From NCBI RefSeq assembly GCF_001898575.1, contig NZ_MKUD01000010.1:297110-361109 (forward strand): a DNA stretch of 64,000 bases. Direction: 5' to 3'. Made by a program: the position numbers and the translations under genes. This stretch comes from Spirosoma sp. 48-14. GTDB lineage: Bacteria > Bacteroidota > Bacteroidia > Cytophagales > Spirosomataceae. The notes under the pieces were generated by a model. The model was not told the origin of the DNA. It searched no databases and was given only the letters and a program-made list of their open reading frames with translations. The first letter of the stretch is position 1; each line of letters opens with the position of its first letter. Below, in pieces: positions 49,182 through 57,200 of this stretch.

Positions 49182-51554
49182 CTACCGCACCAGCATTAAA
49201 CTACCTCGAATGATAGGCTTTTCCGGAACTGTTCGGACAGTATAGGCGTACAGACCGGCTGGAAGTGAATAGCCGTTCAGAGTGCCGTCGAACGGTTTGG
49301 TGTAGCCCTTGCCCGACGAATAGATGATTTCGCCCCAGCGGTTGAAAATGGTGACGATAGCATCGGGGAAAGCCTCAATGCCAAACAGCTCCCAGGTATC
49401 ATTCTTGCCATCGCCATCAGGCGAAAACGCATCTGGTATCCAGACACGGGCATATACCGTAATGTGGATGGTATCTTTCGCTTCGCAACCCGTTTTATTT
49501 TTTACATCGATCGTATAGGTAATATCCTCTTCAATCGACATAACGGTTGGATTAGCCGTGTTGGGGTTGTCCAGATAGGTTGACGTAGCCCACTGAAACT
49601 GATTAGGGTTGCCCGTATACACCGGGTTCATCGTGAAGGTATTACCTTTGTAGGTGACTATCGAATCGGCAAGCTGAATAGTCGGAATGGGGGCTACAAC
49701 CGCCAGTCGCGTTGCTACCGTTCCCTTGCATTCGGGGGCCGCTTTAACCGTGTAAGTCATCTGGTGTTCACCGATTCCGGCCGCTTTAGGGTCAAATTTA
49801 TTTCCACTTACACCCGGTCCTGCATACTCACCATCGGCTGGGCTACCAACGAGTGTGTAAACGGGTGAATTGTCGCCACAAACCTCTGGAATCGTATCGA
49901 GCCGAACATCGATTGGGTCGAGTTGAATGATCGTTACGGGTTTGGAGGTGCCTGTACAGCCGTAGGTATCCGTTGCAATCAAAACAAAGGTGCCGGGCTG
50001 GCTCGTAGTGTATTGTGCTTCGCTGCTCCCCACCGTCGTCCCATCTTTCTGCCAGCTGTAACTGATTCCACCACTACCAGTTAATTGCAAGGACGCTTGC
50101 GGACAGATTCGATTCTGTCCCGATGCTGATTGGATCACGGCCTGTACGGCTGCCGACCGCTGGAGAAGGGCCACATCACTTTGCGCTTTACACCCATATA
50201 TCAGATCGGTCGTAACGGCCCAGTAATTTCCCGGCTGATCAACCACAATGGAATCGGTCGTTTGCCCTGCCAGTGCCTGCCCATTGCGGTACCACTGGTA
50301 CGTGACATTGCTATCGCCTACGGCCGTCAGGTGAATGGTTCCGGTTGTAGCGCATAAATGCCCCCTTTCAAAAACCTTCGCCTGTGTCCCGACAACCTTT
50401 ACGACCATATCGTCGGAGTTCCCGGTTTTACTACAGGTTGTTTTCTGCGAAACGACGACCATATAGGTACCCGCTTCCCGAACGGCTAATGATGAATTGG
50501 TAGCCCCTGTAATATTAATACCGTCTTTGCGCCACTGATAATTCCAGTTGGCATTGAAAGCGGCCTGTATCACGGCCGAATCGCCAAGGCAAATGGTTCG
50601 TGAGCGCATGGTCGGAAAGTTGCGAAATTGAACCGCTGGATCCGGTGTCGTTTGGGGAGGGCAGTCGATGACCAGAAACTGAAAATCACGACGTACCTCT
50701 CCTATTTTTACCCCATTTCTGTATTCTTCCACTTTTACGGCAAAAACATATAACCCTAATTCAGTACCTGTTACCGATAACTGCCCCGATTGGGGGTTGA
50801 CCTGTAATGTGGGACTTCCTGGAATTGCATTAGTGGCACTAAAACCAGGCCGCCAGCTAATGTCGGGGTAGGGGCCTGCTGAAATGGCATTCTGGGCCGT
50901 TCCTTTCTGATTCAATGGGGTTACCATCGAATACCGGAGTTCATCACCATCAGGGTCGTTTCCGCCAAAGGCAAAGGTAAATGCGTCGCCCAGGCAGACG
51001 TATTCACCGTTTATTTTATTGAATTGAGGAGATGAGTTCTGGACGTATTGACCATTTTGCTGTAGGGCAGGAAATTCCAGATAGAAGGTAAACCCAGTTT
51101 GATCAGGATTGACGATATTGTTGATGCCGGCATTCCGATTCCGGGTCTGATACGACATGTAGTAGCCTTGTGGATCACTATACGTGCCGGGGTTGAGCTG
51201 AATGGTGGCTTCGTAAACCCAGATAACAAAGTTTAGATTCCGCTGTGATGCGCAAAAGGCATTGGCATAGACAACAGGCGATTTAGCACCCGTTTGGGTG
51301 ACAGTAAAGGCAGTCATTTGGGCGTTGTCGCGCAGCCGAAAGATACCAACGTTACCTATTGCCGCCTGTCGGGTTATTCCCTGTGTACCATCTTCCAGAT
51401 AATTGGTCACGATGATTTTAAAGTGGCCGGGAATATCGCCAATTGCCTGCATTTCTATCTGACCACCTACCTGGTGGGTCGCCAATGACAATAGCGGCAT
51501 ACCCAGCATCAAGAGCCAGCACAGAAATCCATAAGTAAATGTTCGCATAAACAA
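49182..51554 (-). CDS. T9SS type-B CTD (gliding motility-associated C-terminal domain) protein with Ig-like domains
   Basis: C-terminal WIPDAFSPDGDGKNDTW...IFNRWGEIIY...GLYAY; NSSPQF, DPDGDELRYS and YQWRKDG Ig repeats. Confidence 0.92.
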   Translation of the reverse strand: MFMRTFTYGFLCWLLMLGMPLLSLATHQVGGQIEMQAIGDIPGHFKIIVTNYLEDGTQGITRQAAIGNVGIFRLRDNAQMTAFTVTQTGAKSPVVYANAFCASQRNLNFVIWVYEATIQLNPGTYSDPQGYYMSYQTRNRNAGINNIVNPDQTGFTFYLEFPALQQNGQYVQNSSPQFNKINGEYVCLGDAFTFAFGGNDPDGDELRYSMVTPLNQKGTAQNAISAGPYPDISWRPGFSATNAIPGSPTLQVNPQSGQLSVTGTELGLYVFAVKVEEYRNGVKIGEVRRDFQFLVIDCPPQTTPDPAVQFRNFPTMRSRTICLGDSAVIQAAFNANWNYQWRKDGINITGATNSSLAVREAGTYMVVVSQKTTCSKTGNSDDMVVKVVGTQAKVFERGHLCATTGTIHLTAVGDSNVTYQWYRNGQALAGQTTDSIVVDQPGNYWAVTTDLIYGCKAQSDVALLQRSAAVQAVIQSASGQNRICPQASLQLTGSGGISYSWQKDGTTVGSSEAQYTTSQPGTFVLIATDTYGCTGTSKPVTIIQLDPIDVRLDTIPEVCGDNSPVYTLVGSPADGEYAGPGVSGNKFDPKAAGIGEHQMTYTVKAAPECKGTVATRLAVVAPIPTIQLADSIVTYKGNTFTMNPVYTGNPNQFQWATSTYLDNPNTANPTVMSIEEDITYTIDVKNKTGCEAKDTIHITVYARVWIPDAFSPDGDGKNDTWELFGIEAFPDAIVTIFNRWGEIIYSSGKGYTKPFDGTLNGYSLPAGLYAYTVRTVPEKPIIRGSLMLVR

Positions 51555-51756
51555 GCCGTTCTAAAACTTCGGTCACTCACACACTTTACGACTTCACAGG
51601 TTGTATTCGCTATGCTCACTAACTTGCTTTTGGCGGGATAGACTACCAAGTTACATCTTAAATGCATAGCCATAAATGGCTAAACATTGCTTTTTTATGA
51701 AAAGGAAAAGATTTTCCTTGTTGTACTCTCTTTATATATTGTATGAACTAAATGTG

Positions 51757-51827
51757 CCGCAAAGGCACGCTGGTGCAGCTAATTATTCCGCGTATGTTTA
51801 TTCACTGCAACAGTGTGCCTTTTGCGG
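51757..51827. terminator. long imperfect hairpin after the DUF3570 gene
   Basis: ccgcaaaggcacgctggtgcag / ctgcaacagtgtgccttttgcgg. Confidence 0.55.
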
Positions 51828-51841
51828 TTTACCAGAACCAT

Positions 51842-53047
51842 TTACTTTATCTTGGCCAGTAAGGTTACACTATTGGCTACCATACCTGTTGTTCGGGTAT
51901 AGTGTCCAAATCGCAATTCCACACTCTGCCAGTGGCCGATACCAAACAAACCGCCGGGCGGGGCCGTACGGAAGCCTATCCCTACGAATTGACTGTTGAA
52001 CCCTGAGATGTCGTAATCGCTCGTGTAGTATTTTTCAGTCTGTTTATGTTGCTCATAAGGGGCAAAATACCGGACAGCCGTTTGATGACTAAAGCGGTAA
52101 AAAGGACTAACTGAAATAAACGAGGTGAGTTTGACAGGTACTTCCAGATTAGCCGTATGGGCCTGCATGCCCCAGTCGTCGATATAATAGCGATAGAATG
52201 TTCGAACCACAACCCGGTCGCCCATGAAGTAATGCAGCCGGAAAGAAACGGGAAGTTTAAGGCGCGTGCCGGGTAATTTTTCAACAGTCTCACCGCCGTC
52301 CTGAAAGTAAATTCGGTGAAATGGCGTACTTAACAATCCCTGCTGAAACGATGGCTCTACCGTAAACAGAAGCTGCATCCGTTTATTGATCACCTGCGAT
52401 AATGAAACACTCAGGTTGTACGAATTACGGGGCTTGTAATCAATAGGGTCTCTATCGCCATGGGCACCCGAGCCATAACCATCGGGCCGAAGTTCGGGTG
52501 GGAGAATGGCTTTCCAGGTATCGAAGAAGGCCCCCGCTTTCAGACTAACTTCACGGTTGTTATCCGCAGAAGCTTTAGCGAAATTCAGATTGAAACCGTA
52601 CGACTTGTAGTCGTACTCCGTTGAGTACGAGAAGGCAAGCCCTTTGGTTGTGCGATTGTTGTCGTTATGTACGCTCCAGGAAAGCGACGGATAAATATGG
52701 GTGTCGCTGCGGGAGGCCGATGACACTGTCAGTGGGTCGATGTTATCAGATGATGCCGAGGTATAATGGTCGATGTTGAAGTCGAACGCAATGGTGTGCT
52801 GACGGTTTCGCTGGTCTGTCGTTTTCAGCACAAGGTCGAATGACTGGGCAAAATCAGTCAGTTTTTCCGTGCCAATTCCCCCCGTTACGGCCGAGTTATT
52901 ACCATCCTGCTGATAATAGGAGGATACCAGGTTGATTTCCTCGACTTTGAGTTTACGTTTTTCATAGGCAGGCTGTGTGGTCGATTGACCGTACCCCGCC
53001 CGGAATAGACTAAGCAAAACGCCAACAGAAATACAGATTTTTTTCAT
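51842..53047 (-). CDS. DUF3570 outer-membrane beta-barrel protein
   Basis: Signal peptide; SYYQQDGNNSAVTGGIGTEKL, YTSASS, STEYDY, YYIDDWG, YTSDYDISGF; next to DUF4266 and apbE. Confidence 0.85.
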   Translation of the reverse strand: MKKICISVGVLLSLFRAGYGQSTTQPAYEKRKLKVEEINLVSSYYQQDGNNSAVTGGIGTEKLTDFAQSFDLVLKTTDQRNRQHTIAFDFNIDHYTSASSDNIDPLTVSSASRSDTHIYPSLSWSVHNDNNRTTKGLAFSYSTEYDYKSYGFNLNFAKASADNNREVSLKAGAFFDTWKAILPPELRPDGYGSGAHGDRDPIDYKPRNSYNLSVSLSQVINKRMQLLFTVEPSFQQGLLSTPFHRIYFQDGGETVEKLPGTRLKLPVSFRLHYFMGDRVVVRTFYRYYIDDWGMQAHTANLEVPVKLTSFISVSPFYRFSHQTAVRYFAPYEQHKQTEKYYTSDYDISGFNSQFVGIGFRTAPPGGLFGIGHWQSVELRFGHYTRTTGMVANSVTLLAKIK

Positions 53048-53059
53048 GGTTTGCGTTTG

Positions 53060-53290
53060 TTAGTTACAGCCACAGCCACCACCACTTTTGCCGCCATTCG
53101 CGCCGGCGGCTCCTTCACGATAGAGGTAAAAATTTTGTTCGAACTTCTCCGACTTACGAGCCGATAATTCCATTTCGGCATCGTTGATCCGGCTTTTCTG
53201 ATATTCTTTGACTGTCGTGCACCCTGTTAGACTGAGAAGGCTTATACACACCGTCAGTCCTAGAGTTTTGAGAAACGGGTTCTTATTCAT
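53060..53290 (-). CDS. DUF4266 small lipoprotein
   Basis: Lipobox LTGC, VKEYQK, YREGAAG, C-terminal GGGCGCN. Confidence 0.88.
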   Translation of the reverse strand: MNKNPFLKTLGLTVCISLLSLTGCTTVKEYQKSRINDAEMELSARKSEKFEQNFYLYREGAAGANGGKSGGGCGCN

Positions 53291-53308
53291 TTCGTAGGTT
53301 TATGCAAG

Positions 53309-54265
53309 TTAAGATGTTACGGTAGGTGCCATAAGCCGGATATTGGCCGATGTATAGAGCCTATCGGAATCGTCGATAATAATACAGGCAATGTGCTTCA
53401 TCTGATTGATCAGGTCCAGACCGACCCGAACGCCCATAACCATAACCGGGGTGGCTAAGGCATCGGCTAGCTCGGCATTCGGCGCAATGATGGTAACGCT
53501 TTTAATACCAGCTACTGGGTAGCCCGTTTTGGGGTCTATGGTATGGGCGTATCGTTTTCCGTTGATCAGGGCATACTTTTCATAGTTGCCCGATGTAGCC
53601 ACGGCCATGTTGCTAATAGCCAGGTATGAAAATGCTTCGTGGGACGATAGATTGGGGTCGGCTATGCCAATAGTCCAGGGCTTACCCGTAGGCTGCATGC
53701 CCCAGGTAGTCAGGTCTCCAGCTGCATTGACAATGCCACTCTCTACCCCCCGTTCCCGCAAAATCCGTTTGGCCTGTTCGGCGGCATAGCCTTTGCCGAT
53801 ACCGCCGAATCCAATGCGCATTCCTTTTTCCTTGAGAAATACGGTTTGCTGGGTAGGGTCGAGCTGAACATTTCGATAGTCGATTAATCGAACCATGCGC
53901 CGGGCCGTTTTAGGGTCGGGCAGGGCTGTCATGGTGGTATCGAAATTCCAGAATCGCTTATCCAGTGACCCGTACGTAATGTCAAACGCCCCCTGTGTCA
54001 GCGCTGATAACCGCAGCGATCGTTCGATTAAGGCAAACACCTCGGCATCTACCTGAACGGGTCGTACTCCCGCATTGGCATTGATCTGGTTCGTCTGGCT
54101 ATCGTCACGAAAGGTGGTTAGCAGCCGTTCGATTCGACTGATTTCGTCAATGGCGGCATCCAGACAATCGTTGGCCCAGGTTGCATCTGCGCTGACAACG
54201 CTCAACTCAAAGCGATTACCCATGAGTCGTTGTACGCGTTTATGAATGCCGGGGATATCACTCAT
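53309..54265 (-). CDS. apbE: FAD:protein FMN transferase ApbE
   Basis: LMGNRFEL, GAFDITYG, GFGGIGKGY, NAAGD, ATSGNYE, HTIDPKTG, ADALAT. Confidence 0.95.
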   Translation of the reverse strand: MSDIPGIHKRVQRLMGNRFELSVVSADATWANDCLDAAIDEISRIERLLTTFRDDSQTNQINANAGVRPVQVDAEVFALIERSLRLSALTQGAFDITYGSLDKRFWNFDTTMTALPDPKTARRMVRLIDYRNVQLDPTQQTVFLKEKGMRIGFGGIGKGYAAEQAKRILRERGVESGIVNAAGDLTTWGMQPTGKPWTIGIADPNLSSHEAFSYLAISNMAVATSGNYEKYALINGKRYAHTIDPKTGYPVAGIKSVTIIAPNAELADALATPVMVMGVRVGLDLINQMKHIACIIIDDSDRLYTSANIRLMAPTVTS

Positions 54266-54705
54266 TTCGTGGCTAAACGCACTGCCTGAATGGATTCAAT
54301 AAACGACGAGATCGTCATGGATTGCGGGTAGCCATCCCATTCTTTCAGAACCTTGCCCTCGGAATTGAGCAATACCGTAAACGGAAACTTACCCTGCCGG
54401 TTGTATTTTTCAGCTAAAGACTCATTGTGAGCGGTTTGTTTGGCATCGAGCTGATTTTTCGATAACCGAGGGAAGTCGGCACGAACCAGAATTAAATTAT
54501 CGGTTGCAAACTGGCTAAACTCCTCCGATTCGAAGATTGTCTTTTTAAGTTTTATACAGGGACCACACCAGTCGGAACCCGAAAAATTTAGCAGGATAAG
54601 TTTGTGGGCCTGCGTGGCTTCCGTTTTAGCCTGATCAAAATTTAATTGCCAGGTTAAGGTACTGGATAGCAAGCTGAAGAAAATAGCGGTTACTAGGAAT
54701 TTCAT
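54262..54705 (-). CDS. exported thioredoxin-family protein
   Basis: Signal peptide; FSGSDWCGPCIKL; ATGA overlap with apbE. Confidence 0.92.
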   Translation of the reverse strand: MKFLVTAIFFSLLSSTLTWQLNFDQAKTEATQAHKLILLNFSGSDWCGPCIKLKKTIFESEEFSQFATDNLILVRADFPRLSKNQLDAKQTAHNESLAEKYNRQGKFPFTVLLNSEGKVLKEWDGYPQSMTISSFIESIQAVRLATK

Positions 54706-54739
54706 CGTGGTTGGCTTGTTTATTTATTGGATAAATGCA

Positions 54740-55273
54740 TTAGCTGTAAACGACCAGCGTTTTTCCGTCAGTGGCTGTTTTATAAACCGTTAACCCTCGA
54801 CTACCGAAGCTATTTTTTCCTTGGCCGGTCAGGTCGAAACGGGCACCGTGCTGTGTACAGTAGTATTCTGTCTTGTTGAACATGATGGCCTTTTTGGGCT
54901 CATGGCTACAGGTCTGGGTAGCTGCCACGTAAACACCTGCCGTTGACTGAGCCACTACAATACCACTCTGGGTAATATAGCCACCAACCGTTTTTAAGGC
55001 TGAAGCAGCCGACGAAGTCAGGTCAATTGTAAGTAGTCGATTTTTTATGCTACTCAGGTCGGTGCCGTTTGTTGTAGTTCCACTGGTAGTCGTGCTGCTG
55101 GTAGCGGTACTACTCGATGTAGCTGTTGTAGTCGTTGATGGGGTTGTTGTGGTTGTACCAGATAAGGAAAGCGCATTGACTACCGTATCCTCTTCATGCA
55201 CACAGGAAGTCAGTAACGCCATCAGGGCCGAACCTGTAAAGCCCATTGATTTTAAAAATTCCAAGCGAGTCAT
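54740..55273 (-). CDS. Rieske [2Fe-2S] lipoprotein
   Basis: MTRLEFLK...LLTSC lipoprotein signal, Thr/Ser-rich linker, CSH...CTQHGARFD. Confidence 0.85.
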   Translation of the reverse strand: MTRLEFLKSMGFTGSALMALLTSCVHEEDTVVNALSLSGTTTTTPSTTTTATSSSTATSSTTTSGTTTNGTDLSSIKNRLLTIDLTSSAASALKTVGGYITQSGIVVAQSTAGVYVAATQTCSHEPKKAIMFNKTEYYCTQHGARFDLTGQGKNSFGSRGLTVYKTATDGKTLVVYS

Positions 55274-55684
55274 ACAAGCGAGTGGGTTTGTGTACGTTAA
55301 ACGTTGTTTTCGTAATTAGTATTAGTTGTTTTTACGGGTATTCTGAAAATGATCTACCGATGACTCAGTGATTGGTAATCAGGTAGGTAAAATCATTTCC
55401 AGCGGTTGAGCCTATAATCTGGTGTCAGTGTTAAATTTCTGATTTTTAGGATTTTGCACTTTTATTCAATAGGTCATATACCAATTTATGTTTGCCATAA
55501 ATCCAACAGCATTGACTTCTTGTATAGTAATACGTGTATTGATAATAAAACGTGGCAGTGAGTCAAATACTTTATGTATTGGTTAGATTTACTTAATTTT
55601 AAATTGTAAGTATTTGGCAATTAGTGTGTTATGCTAATTGTCAAATACTCATGTATTCATTGTTTTCAAAGACCATTGGGATAA

Positions 55685-57094
55685 TTATTTTAGAAACATA
55701 TTAACAGCCTGAATACGAGTGGTCACGTGGTTTTTCAACGCCATGACCCCGGTAATGAAATCGGTTGTGCTGGTTAGGTAGGAGTAAGGTTTTTGCTCCG
55801 GTTCTGTGCCTGTCACGTAAGGGGCAATTAAATAATAGTTCTGGTCGATGATGGCGTTTATGTTGCTTGCCGTAAACACATTGTCCCTAAAGTCTTTGAC
55901 ATACTGTTTATATCGGGCATAGTAAACTGCGTCATGGGCTATGGCATAGATAAGCGGCCAACTGTTGCTTACTTCAGTCATTTCGAGCGAAACGGCTTTG
56001 CCGCCACCGGCTCCGTTGCCCGATGTGGTAGTCATGGCCATGTTATGATCCCAGGGAATCCAGGTGAGGTGATTTGTGGGGGCGTTGTAGAGGTAGTAGT
56101 TGTGGGCCATAGCCCCGTAGCTGTCCCAATTCACAATGGTATTATTAACGGCCAGATACTTAAGAAAGAGGTCCATATTGAACGTCTTCTCCAGATTTGT
56201 GCGCCAGGTTGCAGGGTCTGTAGTTCGGTTGGTTGCATTGAGGGCCGCTACAAACGCCTGAACATCAGAATAGTCAGCTTTATCTTCATTGTTTTTCTTT
56301 TCAAACTGGCTTTGTACAAACGTTTGTAATGTTGATTCTGGCTTATAGATGTTTCCTTTTTTCTCGCCATACTGGGTTTTGACCATCGTATCGTCGATCA
56401 CTTCGACCATCGTATACACACCACAGTATTTTTTACCTGATCCAAAATCAATATACACCCGATAAAAAGCAGTTTGAGCGGCTGGTACGCCAGACAGTCG
56501 AAAAATATCAGCTACTATTTTTTCTCTTAACAACGAATTATCGCTAAAACCTGGCGACATACTTAACTCTTTGAAGCCATAATACCGTTGGTCTTTGATG
56601 TCGGGATAAGTGTCCTCGAATTCATCCATTTTGAGCCGGAAAGGCAGTTTGTAGATGCCCGATCGCCAGGCTGAAGAGAGGCTTGAATTTCCTTTGAGAC
56701 GGAAGCCCACATGGTCCCAGAGTTTACCATTAATGTAAACGGGCAGGGCTACATAGGCTGGATCATCGCCAAAGGTACCTCCTCCTGGATTGCCCCCTGG
56801 CATTCCACCTCCGCCCGCATTTCCGGTGCCAAACGTTCCCCAGGATTTAGCCGACATATCGGTCTGGATCGACTTCCACTGATCGGCAGTCATTGTTATC
56901 TCCATCGTTTTCACGTCAGTTTGCGAGAACGCGACGGAATAACTGGGGGGAGCATCGCCACTATGTGATTCGGTGGTCCAGTCGGGATTGGTCGTACTGC
57001 CTGTATTGGGGGCTACCTCCGAGTATTTAGGCTGGCAGGCCAGCCCGATCCAGATTAATGATCCAATAAAAAAGAGTAATGTATTGGCTTTCAT
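55685..57094 (-). CDS. CotH-kinase family lipoprotein
   Basis: Lipobox GLAC; GFRLKGNSS, KLPFRLKMD, GVYTMVEVID, NWDSY, WIPWDHN. Start at ATG 57094 preferred. Confidence 0.88.
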   Translation of the reverse strand: MKANTLLFFIGSLIWIGLACQPKYSEVAPNTGSTTNPDWTTESHSGDAPPSYSVAFSQTDVKTMEITMTADQWKSIQTDMSAKSWGTFGTGNAGGGGMPGGNPGGGTFGDDPAYVALPVYINGKLWDHVGFRLKGNSSLSSAWRSGIYKLPFRLKMDEFEDTYPDIKDQRYYGFKELSMSPGFSDNSLLREKIVADIFRLSGVPAAQTAFYRVYIDFGSGKKYCGVYTMVEVIDDTMVKTQYGEKKGNIYKPESTLQTFVQSQFEKKNNEDKADYSDVQAFVAALNATNRTTDPATWRTNLEKTFNMDLFLKYLAVNNTIVNWDSYGAMAHNYYLYNAPTNHLTWIPWDHNMAMTTTSGNGAGGGKAVSLEMTEVSNSWPLIYAIAHDAVYYARYKQYVKDFRDNVFTASNINAIIDQNYYLIAPYVTGTEPEQKPYSYLTSTTDFITGVMALKNHVTTRIQAVNMFLK

Positions 57095-57200
57095 GTAGTG
57101 TACACCGTTCGGCTTTATACCGCTTGTACGCATACAAAATAGCCTCCGTTGCAATAGGGCTTTATTGGGGGGAAAAATAGGTTAAAAAGCAGACGGAAAA

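Follow-up and report, generated by a model that had tools for sequence, protein, structure and literature searches.

The window examined here, a 64,000-nucleotide stretch of a Spirosoma sp. 48-14 contig (source assembly of 8.7 Mb in 89 contigs, 100% complete), carries on its minus strand, at positions 51842-55273, a five-gene operon for a Rieske lipoprotein, a thioredoxin-like protein, the flavin transferase ApbE, and members of the DUF4266 and DUF3570 families. We consider it probable, judging the assignment jointly with the electron path proposed below, that this locus is the Spirosomataceae form of the published “DsbD system” of Meheust et al. 2021, with the addition of a lineage-specific Rieske lipoprotein gene. 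The locus is placed in that system because of its Pfam assignments, the published description of the clusters, the alignment of two DUF3570 motifs with those of Chlorobia-type proteins (a label given here to DsbD-linked proteins on the basis of DUF3570 copy number and DsbD linkage), and the invariance of two serines, S99 and S112. Four of the five genes are hence those of an already published system, and the Rieske partner is the new part. The five open reading frames were confirmed from the sequence and by Pfam, and their main features are the following:

54740-55273, minus strand: Rieske [2Fe-2S] lipoprotein, 177 amino acids (PF00355, 24.5 bits against a cut-off of 20.3)
54848-54910, minus strand: codons of the Rieske ligands C122-S-H124 ... 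C139-T-Q-H142 (sequence and alignment)
54262-54705, minus strand: thioredoxin-like protein, 147 amino acids (PF13899, 48.4 bits)
54556-54570, minus strand: active site W46-C-G-P-C50 of the thioredoxin-like protein (sequence)
53309-54265, minus strand: ApbE, FAD:protein FMN transferase (FAD, flavin adenine dinucleotide; FMN, flavin mononucleotide), 318 amino acids (PF02424, 286 bits)
53060-53290, minus strand: DUF4266 lipoprotein, 76 amino acids (PF14086, 71.8 bits)
53066-53074, minus strand: C73-G-C75-N tail of DUF4266 (sequence)
51842-53047, minus strand: DUF3570 protein, 401 amino acids (PF12094, 114 bits)
52712-52762, minus strand: DUF3570 loop with both predicted flavinylation motifs, T96-S112 (sequence, alignment and AlphaFold2 model)

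The genes are closely packed. Read from the Rieske gene to the DUF3570 gene, the spacings are 34 nt, a 4-nt ATGA overlap, 18 nt and 12 nt, in agreement with the initial annotation, which had described five co-oriented genes with gaps of 43 nt or less. This gene order is more than a chance arrangement, because the same order (Rieske, thioredoxin-like gene or trx, apbE, DUF4266, DUF3570) is found in all 20 of the Spirosomataceae loci that were fetched, which represent approximately 17 genera, and the trx-apbE-DUF4266-DUF3570 core recurs across the Bacteroidota.

DUF3570 was found in a search for the substrates of “orphan” ApbE proteins (Meheust, Huang, Rivera-Lugo, Banfield and Light 2021, eLife 10:e66878, PMC8238504). 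In that study the DUF3570 protein of Chlorobium luteolum, which contains two [S/T]GA[S/T] motifs, is flavinylated by its own ApbE upon co-expression, and the signal is abolished only by Ser-to-Ala substitution at both motifs; the experiment used signal-less proteins in E. coli, with DUF3570 in the insoluble pellet. The same paper describes 227 clusters that combine DsbD, ApbE, DUF3570, a PF13899 thioredoxin-like protein and a DUF4266 protein with a C-terminal CXC, as well as 316 further such clusters without DsbD, and reports that 25 clusters carry the ferrous-iron transporter VIT1. This experiment and these clusters bear out the initial annotation, which had linked DUF3570 to ApbE flavinylation. 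Rieske proteins are nowhere mentioned in PMC8238504, and DUF3570 is not termed a barrel or an outer-membrane protein there. A 2024 preprint from the same group gives the “outer membrane” as one location of flavinylated domains and does not name DUF3570. Within the literature searched, the role of DUF3570 is addressed by Meheust et al. 2021 alone. The adjacency of a Rieske gene, the barrel model of DUF3570, the signal-less ApbE, and the Rieske signal with its surface-export-like start all go beyond this literature.

The window locus shares with the published systems all four Pfam families in one operon, the two motifs at homologous DUF3570 positions, and the C-terminal CXC of DUF4266. Its apbE gene (PF02424) lies two genes upstream of DUF3570, the PF13899 protein has the active site WCGPC, and DUF4266 ends in GCGCN. 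A dsbD gene within the cluster is characteristic of the DsbD-linked subtype only, and here dsbD is on another contig; the locus is therefore of the DsbD-unlinked subtype, to which the 316 clusters of the paper belong. There are three further differences. A Rieske lipoprotein gene heads the Spirosoma operon, both Spirosoma motifs have Ser for Gly, and the order of the shared genes is trx-apbE-DUF4266-DUF3570, rather than the trx-DUF4266-DUF3570-apbE-dsbD of the Chlorobia type.

The two motifs of the window protein are D93-H-Y-T-S-A-S99 and S109-S-A-S112 (DHYTSASS ... TVSSAS), and both are present within 52712-52762, where the initial annotation had noticed two motif-like segments. It had noted their likeness to (S/T)GA(S/T). 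In the wider alignment the motifs (TSAS and SSAS) occupy exactly the columns that hold VTGAS and SSGAS in the DsbD-linked, Chlorobia-type proteins, and the positions of the modified serines are invariant, with Ser replacing Gly in each motif. Apart from this one substitution, motif 1 matches the seven-residue consensus D-x-x-[S/T]-G-A-[S/T]. In the 20 family loci the consensus is D-x-Y-(T/S)-S-A-S for motif 1 and (V/I/L/F)-S-(S/G)-(A/P)-S for motif 2, with Pro for Ala in motif 2 of a few relatives (ISGPS and LSSPS). In an alignment of 28 sequences, the most distant at 28% identity, S99 and S112 do not vary, and S97, A98 and S109 are at least 90% conserved. The window protein is 98% identical to the DUF3570 of Spirosoma aerolatum. 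The FMN_bind domain (PF04205) is absent from the whole genome, and so the earlier statement that there is no classical FMN-binding-domain substrate is true genome-wide. From these alignments we strongly infer, short of stating it as fact, that the Spirosoma DUF3570 protein is flavinylated.

DUF3570 has a Sec signal peptide, MKKICISVGVLLSLFRAGYG, with cleavage at approximately G20/Q21. Its AlphaFold2 model, built from a 93-sequence alignment, has a predicted local distance difference test score (pLDDT) of 93.1 and a predicted template modelling score (pTM) of 0.85, and is all-β with approximately 16-18 long strands, although the strand count is ambiguous past strand 8. The top Foldseek matches in the PDB are all outer-membrane barrels (OmpG, OprD/Occ, AlgE, FadL/TodX and BcsC), with template modelling scores (TM-scores) of 0.36-0.47; the fold class is therefore clear, with no specific relative. 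A profile search of the PDB sequences with DUF3570 likewise found no relative. The Sec signal, the antiparallel barrel and the short periplasmic turns of the model are those of an outer-membrane protein, and DUF3570 is accordingly predicted to be an outer-membrane β-barrel. In the model the turns after strands 2, 4, 6 and 8 have 2-5 residues, and the loops after strands 1, 3 and 7 have 14, 16 and 24 residues, respectively. Strand 3 (83-97) and strand 4 (114-128) are joined by the loop 98-113, which holds both motifs. By the usual rule of barrel topology, and given a periplasmic N-terminus, this flavin loop would be placed either outside or within the lumen, and the conserved QDGNNSAVTGGIGTE loop would be on the same side.

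The Rieske lipoprotein begins with a Tat-like signal (MTRLEFLKS) and a lipobox (LLTS-C24), and continues with the mature start CVHEED, a Thr/Ser linker (29-69) and a ferredoxin-type domain (72-177). C24 and the four ligand residues (C122, H124, C139 and H142) are invariant in 24 homologues. In the AlphaFold2 model the domain has pLDDT values of 86-95, and the linker, with values below 50, is modelled as disordered. Foldseek matches the domain to Rieske ferredoxins and PetC3 with target-normalised TM-scores of 0.6-0.74. Both the CxH ... CxxH ligands and the predicted fold are those of a Rieske protein. High-potential Rieske proteins have extra cysteines that form a disulfide; these are missing here, suggesting that the redox potential of the center is low.

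Two features of the N-terminus bear on where this protein is placed. A twin-arginine signal would be expected of an Fe-S protein that is exported. The signal, T-R-L-E-F-L-K, has a single Arg, with xR[YLFH][DE]FLK as the family consensus and RK in the out-group loci; two twin-arginine translocation (Tat) signals found elsewhere in the genome, DRREFLK and SRRNFLQ, have RR, and TatC is present. The mature start C-V-H-E-E-D is kept in the family as C-x-[RKH]-x-E-D. It resembles C-X-K-(D/E)2, the surface-export signal of Bacteroidota lipoproteins (the lipoprotein export signal, LES, of Lauber et al. 2016), which was defined in Capnocytophaga (PMC5080379). Of the 428 lipoproteins crudely predicted in the genome, only 7 combine a basic +3 residue with acidic ones at +4 and +5, and the SusD-like proteins of the genome have acidic residues mostly at +3 and +4. 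On this basis surface exposure of the Rieske protein is possible.

The thioredoxin-like protein has a Sec signal; among named models, it is closest to those of the disulfide reductases DsbH and DsbD-gamma. The DsbH-like NCBIfam model scores 84 bits, below its cut-off, and the best PDB match is 2ju5 (E 6.9e-16). By its WCGPC site and these models the protein is classed as a reductase type. DUF4266 consists of a lipobox (LTG-C24), a helical segment and a Gly-rich tail ending in GGGCGCN; no aligned homologue has lost the lipobox Cys or the C-terminal GGCGC. Its mature start, CTTVKE, contains no acidic surface-export signal, and the protein probably faces the periplasm. The single dsbD gene of the genome (DsbD_TM) is full length (719 amino acids) and lies on another contig (C9:197379-199538). 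It is 3 kb from tatC (C9:202592-203449), which may be chance.

The window ApbE is covered by PF02424 over its full length (positions 1-266 of 266), and its PDB matches include 7esa (E 1.9e-49) and a total of thirteen FMN transferases at E <1e-30. It starts MSDIPGIHKRVQRLMGN, its ATG overlapping the trx stop codon, with no longer in-frame open reading frame and approximately 14 residues before the conserved LMGN core. Periplasmic ApbE proteins typically have an N-terminal signal peptide or lipobox. The window protein has neither, and the same is true of the ApbE proteins in each of the 20 family loci and in roughly half of the 40 wider Bacteroidota loci, the others having clear signals. The DsbD-linked, Chlorobia-type ApbE proteins of the sampled loci are signal-less too (they start MHRFGFRAMGS). 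ApbE is known to modify short unstructured motifs, and cytosolic ApbE proteins exist (PMC12052999). Since the window ApbE has no export signal, flavinylation in the cytoplasm is probable, and the simplest reading is that the flavin is put on the unfolded DUF3570 precursor before Sec export. We rejected the idea that ApbE is exported by Tat hitch-hiking with the Rieske protein: of the three wider loci with an intact Rieske gene, L057 and L078 have an ApbE signal and L071 has none, and many loci have neither signal nor Rieske gene. A frameshift fusion of trx and apbE was also rejected, since relatives differ in how the two genes meet (4-nt overlap, 11-nt overlap and gaps of approximately 18 nt). 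The genome has three ApbE genes in total. The other two (C58:108308-109384 and C10:199064-200569) encode one protein with a clear signal peptide and one with a weaker signal-like N-terminus, and each adjoins a gene for a twin-arginine-signal protein (455 amino acids, DRREFLK; 552 amino acids, SRRNFLQ); these neighbors may be further unrecognised flavinylation substrates.

DUF3570 is found in 51 of 121 sampled Spirosomataceae genomes, and in 96 of 401 Bacteroidota genomes outside this family. The initial annotation had proposed checking how often the Rieske gene is part of the cluster, and the answer differs sharply between the two groups. When the DUF3570 scan is compared with a Rieske scan of the same family genomes, a Rieske match lies within 5 kb of DUF3570 in 46 of the 51 positive Spirosomataceae genomes (four others are left undecided by contig breaks, and one has no strong match among those listed), and in the 20 family loci the Rieske gene is always immediately upstream of trx, with two tandem copies in two of them. 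By comparison, an intact Rieske gene is beside the cluster in only 3 of the 40 wider loci (L057, L071 and L078); a fourth, L058, has a Rieske gene that has lost one Cys ligand. In two Bacteroidota genomes of another family, the Rieske position is taken by a multihaem lipoprotein, with 11 CXXCH motifs in one (L090:5955-7133, plus strand, 16 nt before trx) and two in the other (L085:9890-10279, minus strand). A lipid-anchored one-electron metalloprotein is, then, a recurring yet exchangeable partner of the DUF3570 barrel. The apbE gene is kept within the operon, often translationally coupled, in family and wider loci. The Rieske protein was rejected as a strict marker of the system, as a homologue is present in 118 of the 121 family genomes and paralogues occur in a context linked to extracytoplasmic function (ECF) sigma factors.

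Several loci depart from the usual arrangement. One family locus (L049; G002:C2:732000-747000) reads Rieske-trx-DUF3570 and lacks apbE and DUF4266; a different contig of that genome carries a second DUF3570 locus. The fetched locus L083 has a DUF4266-DUF3570 pair from which trx and apbE are absent. The pair is flanked by two genes (L083:5576-8020 and L083:9414-11657, both minus strand), whose products are an 814-amino-acid cargo protein of the type IX secretion system (T9SS), which weakly matches DUF2271 (beside DUF3570, the second new substrate of ApbE), and a 747-amino-acid protein with HZS_alpha and weak cytochrome c matches. In the family f24 genomes (2-3 Mb, probably Chlorobiaceae; e.g., G434:C45:32553-40488) there are up to nine DUF3570 matches per genome, some of them in tandem arrays, and some open reading frames of more than 800 amino acids hold two DUF3570 units. 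Within the Spirosoma genome, paralogous Rieske lipoproteins are encoded on other contigs (C9:121003-121536, minus strand, 177 amino acids; C1:241749-242213, plus strand, 154 amino acids). Each is followed by genes for exported proteins of approximately 225 and 185 amino acids, and ECF sigma and anti-sigma genes flank them; these loci are a separate conserved module with the same kind of Rieske lipoprotein.

These elements can be arranged into an electron path. ApbE would attach FMN to S99 and S112 of DUF3570, probably on the unfolded cytoplasmic precursor before Sec export, and DUF3570 would then fold as an outer-membrane barrel, its two flavins being carried by the long loop that follows strand 3. 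Reducing equivalents would pass from cytoplasmic thioredoxin via DsbD to the periplasmic WCGPC thioredoxin-like protein, from there to the Cys-Gly-Cys tail of DUF4266 at the inner face of the outer membrane, and on to the flavins. The flavins would convert the two-electron thiol chemistry into one-electron steps to the tethered Rieske center, which in turn would reduce an acceptor at or beyond the outer membrane, such as ferric iron. A flavin is a natural converter between two- and one-electron chemistry, and the potentials fall in path order: approximately -250 mV for thioredoxin folds, -170 mV for a CGC peptide, -200 mV for FMN, and -150 mV or higher for Rieske ferredoxins. An electron path across the outer membrane had been suggested in the initial annotation, and this suggestion gains support from the barrel model, from the position of the motifs in a long loop, and from the Rieske or multihaem lipoproteins found at the same position elsewhere. 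A more explicit version would be a haem-free wire through the outer membrane, in which the DsbD-fed relay ends with the CGC tail of DUF4266 entering the barrel from the periplasmic side, the two FMNs sit on an outward loop, and a surface-exposed, glycan-tethered Rieske protein reduces an extracellular acceptor, the flavins having been attached in the cytoplasm and carried through Sec and the β-barrel assembly machinery (BAM) on the unfolded chain. We think this version unlikely.

A number of points weigh against the path, at one step or another. Experimental backing is limited to the flavinylation step, and comes from another organism. Both window motifs carry Ser at the canonical Gly, and for another substrate a Gly-to-Ala change in the motif reduces flavinylation, loss of the Asp having a minor effect (ApbE review of 2025, PMC12052999). 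We know of no precedent for a cytoplasmic ApbE that acts on a Sec substrate. The side of the barrel on which the flavin loop lies follows from the topology rule rather than from the model coordinates, and the strands after strand 8 cannot be counted with certainty. In this genome dsbD and the cluster are unlinked. The single Arg of the Rieske signal contrasts with the RR of the Tat signals examined in the genome, and surface exposure of the Rieske protein would mean that a folded Fe-S protein traverses the outer membrane. Furthermore, the core works without a Rieske protein, the gene being missing from most clusters outside the Spirosomataceae. No conserved upstream motif (five-species upstream comparison) or conserved neighboring gene (20 family loci) that would point to the electron acceptor was found. 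Finally, four public runs (X4, X9, X11 and X13), which we guessed to be RNA, have a flat depth of approximately 7 over 51300-56000, including the 411-nt intergenic region; flat depth through this region looks like DNA, and the runs permit no conclusion on co-transcription.

The same parts can be read in other ways. DUF3570 might primarily be a transport channel for iron, a sulfur compound or another redox-active solute, with the cofactors reducing or gating the substrate so that it is taken up. The nearest folds are indeed substrate-specific (OprD/Occ, FadL, AlgE and OmpG), the 25 clusters with VIT1 (PMC8238504) would fit iron, and the presumed Chlorobiaceae, whose members handle extracellular sulfur, carry up to nine copies. 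The TM-scores of 0.36-0.47, in contrast, indicate only a generic barrel likeness, and among the open reading frames of the window, the Pfam matches and the upstream comparison there is no transporter, TonB or iron-regulation signature adjoining the locus. We regard transport as the primary role as distinctly unlikely, and it overlaps with the proposed path rather than opposing it. Electrons might alternatively flow in the reverse direction, from envelope thiols through the thioredoxin-like protein and the CGC tail to the flavins, and then via the Rieske center to oxygen or a quinone, so that the system makes disulfides in the manner of a sulfhydryl oxidase. A thioredoxin fold, a CxC or CxxC motif, a flavin and an acceptor are arranged in this order in known flavin sulfhydryl oxidases, and dsbD is unlinked both here and in the sampled Bacteroidia loci. 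Reverse flow nevertheless appears very unlikely. The WCGPC site is of the reductase type, with DsbH and DsbD-gamma as the nearest models, and dsbD, which imports reducing power, is part of the Chlorobia-type operons (the 227 clusters of PMC8238504). The green sulfur bacteria that are the presumed hosts of these operons are, moreover, strict anaerobes, for which oxygen would be an impossible acceptor.

A last reading removes the flavins from the barrel altogether. The Bacteroidia DUF3570 loop might be unflavinylated, its Ser-for-Gly motifs being relics, with ApbE acting on another cytoplasmic target or in flavin handling, and the remaining proteins forming a thiol-only envelope module. This would fit the deviation of both motifs from [S/T]GA[S/T], the Pro for Ala in motif 2 of a few relatives, and the absence of an export signal from ApbE. 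Against it stand the invariance of S99 and S112 and the conservation of S97, A98 and S109 over alignments extending down to 28% identity, the retention of apbE in the operon, often with translational coupling, and the absence of an FMN_bind domain in the genome as an alternative target. Lack of a signal is not distinctive either, since the Chlorobia-type ApbE, whose C. luteolum member was shown to flavinylate DUF3570, is signal-less too in the sampled loci. We consider the unflavinylated loop the least probable of these alternatives, and continue to favor flavinylated DUF3570 within the published system and the outward electron path.

Outside the operon, four neighboring features of the window were considered:

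51754-51768, minus strand: weak terminator-like hairpin, a possible operon end, 74 nt past the DUF3570 stop codon (consensus scan only)
55274-55684, minus strand: AT-rich non-coding region 5' of the Rieske gene, presumed promoter region, 411 nt (GC 0.38-0.41)
55685-57154, minus strand: CotH-family lipoprotein gene, the neighbor upstream of the operon
49182-51554, minus strand: T9SS (CHU_C) cargo protein, 790 amino acids, directly downstream of DUF3570

The hairpin provides no evidence of function, as four terminator-like hairpins were found where 4.4 are expected from shuffled sequences. No promoter was identified in 55274-55684; the motif TAnnTTTG is not found in this region, and a scan for sigma-70-type sites gives fewer sites than in shuffled sequences. 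A conserved promoter or regulator site was rejected, as the upstream regions of five Spirosoma species do not align and contain no TAnnTTTG. The CotH gene was likewise rejected as a functional partner: it is beside the cluster in none of 20 related loci, and so is unrelated to the operon. The T9SS cargo gene is syntenic in three of four Spirosoma species and not beyond, and is probably not a member of the system. The public runs X4, X9, X11 and X13 are from 2023 and belong to libraries of another named organism, and probably carry bacterial DNA along.

The DUF3570 system, described in 2021, is present in hundreds of genomes, and three of the present results should make its function easier to test. 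A predicted barrel with both flavin sites on one loop would turn a “periplasmic relay” into a candidate cytochrome-free route across the outer membrane. The lineage-dependent partner at the operon head (Rieske or multihaem lipoprotein) is what is expected if the barrel feeds a one-electron carrier, and the Rieske center offers a handle for electron paramagnetic resonance (EPR). The pairing of a signal-less flavin transferase with an exported substrate raises the question of the place and time of flavin attachment. Being aerobic and culturable, Spirosoma and its relatives may prove more convenient for experiments than green sulfur bacteria. The core of the locus is a rediscovery and all of the new points are computational; if flavinylation of the Ser-for-Gly motifs fails, most of the interest is lost.

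Among other known systems, the MtrCAB conduits of Shewanella and Geobacter are the most obvious comparison. In both cases an outer-membrane barrel and lipoprotein redox carriers may move electrons across the outer membrane, and related DUF3570 clusters carry multihaem lipoproteins. There is no homology, however, and the DUF3570 barrel is far smaller than MtrB, which has 26 strands. The cofactors here would be covalent FMN, a dithiol and one [2Fe-2S] center; no CXXCH motif is seen in the five operon proteins, and no Mtr structure is among the top 50 Foldseek matches of the DUF3570 barrel. The locus is thus not a member of the MtrCAB group, and the analogy would be one of function only.

For the Rieske protein, the sole PDB sequence match is PetC3 of Synechocystis (PDB 5cxm; E 0.011, approximately 23% identity), which superposes on the domain with a target-normalised TM-score of 0.70. 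PetC3 is described, in the account of Veit et al. 2016 given in PMC12341915, as a small lipid-anchored Rieske protein that is extracytoplasmic and stands outside the bc1/b6f complexes, which is also the general character of the Spirosoma protein. PetC3 is on the periplasmic face of the inner membrane, and differs from the Spirosoma protein, in which a long Thr/Ser tether is combined with a signal containing one Arg and a mature start that resembles a surface-export signal. The Rieske ferredoxins of aromatic-ring dioxygenases (for example CarAc, BphA3/BphF and TodB) are the best fold matches (TM 0.6-0.74), and share with it the four ligands and the lack of a disulfide, as in the low-potential type. 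These ferredoxins are soluble and cytoplasmic, however, whereas the Spirosoma protein is exported and lipidated and has no oxygenase gene nearby. The sulfhydryl oxidases QSOX and Erv are not homologous to the operon proteins, hold their FAD non-covalently, and work in the direction opposite to the proposed path, but in them, too, a short Cys motif links a thioredoxin fold to a flavin in a relay.

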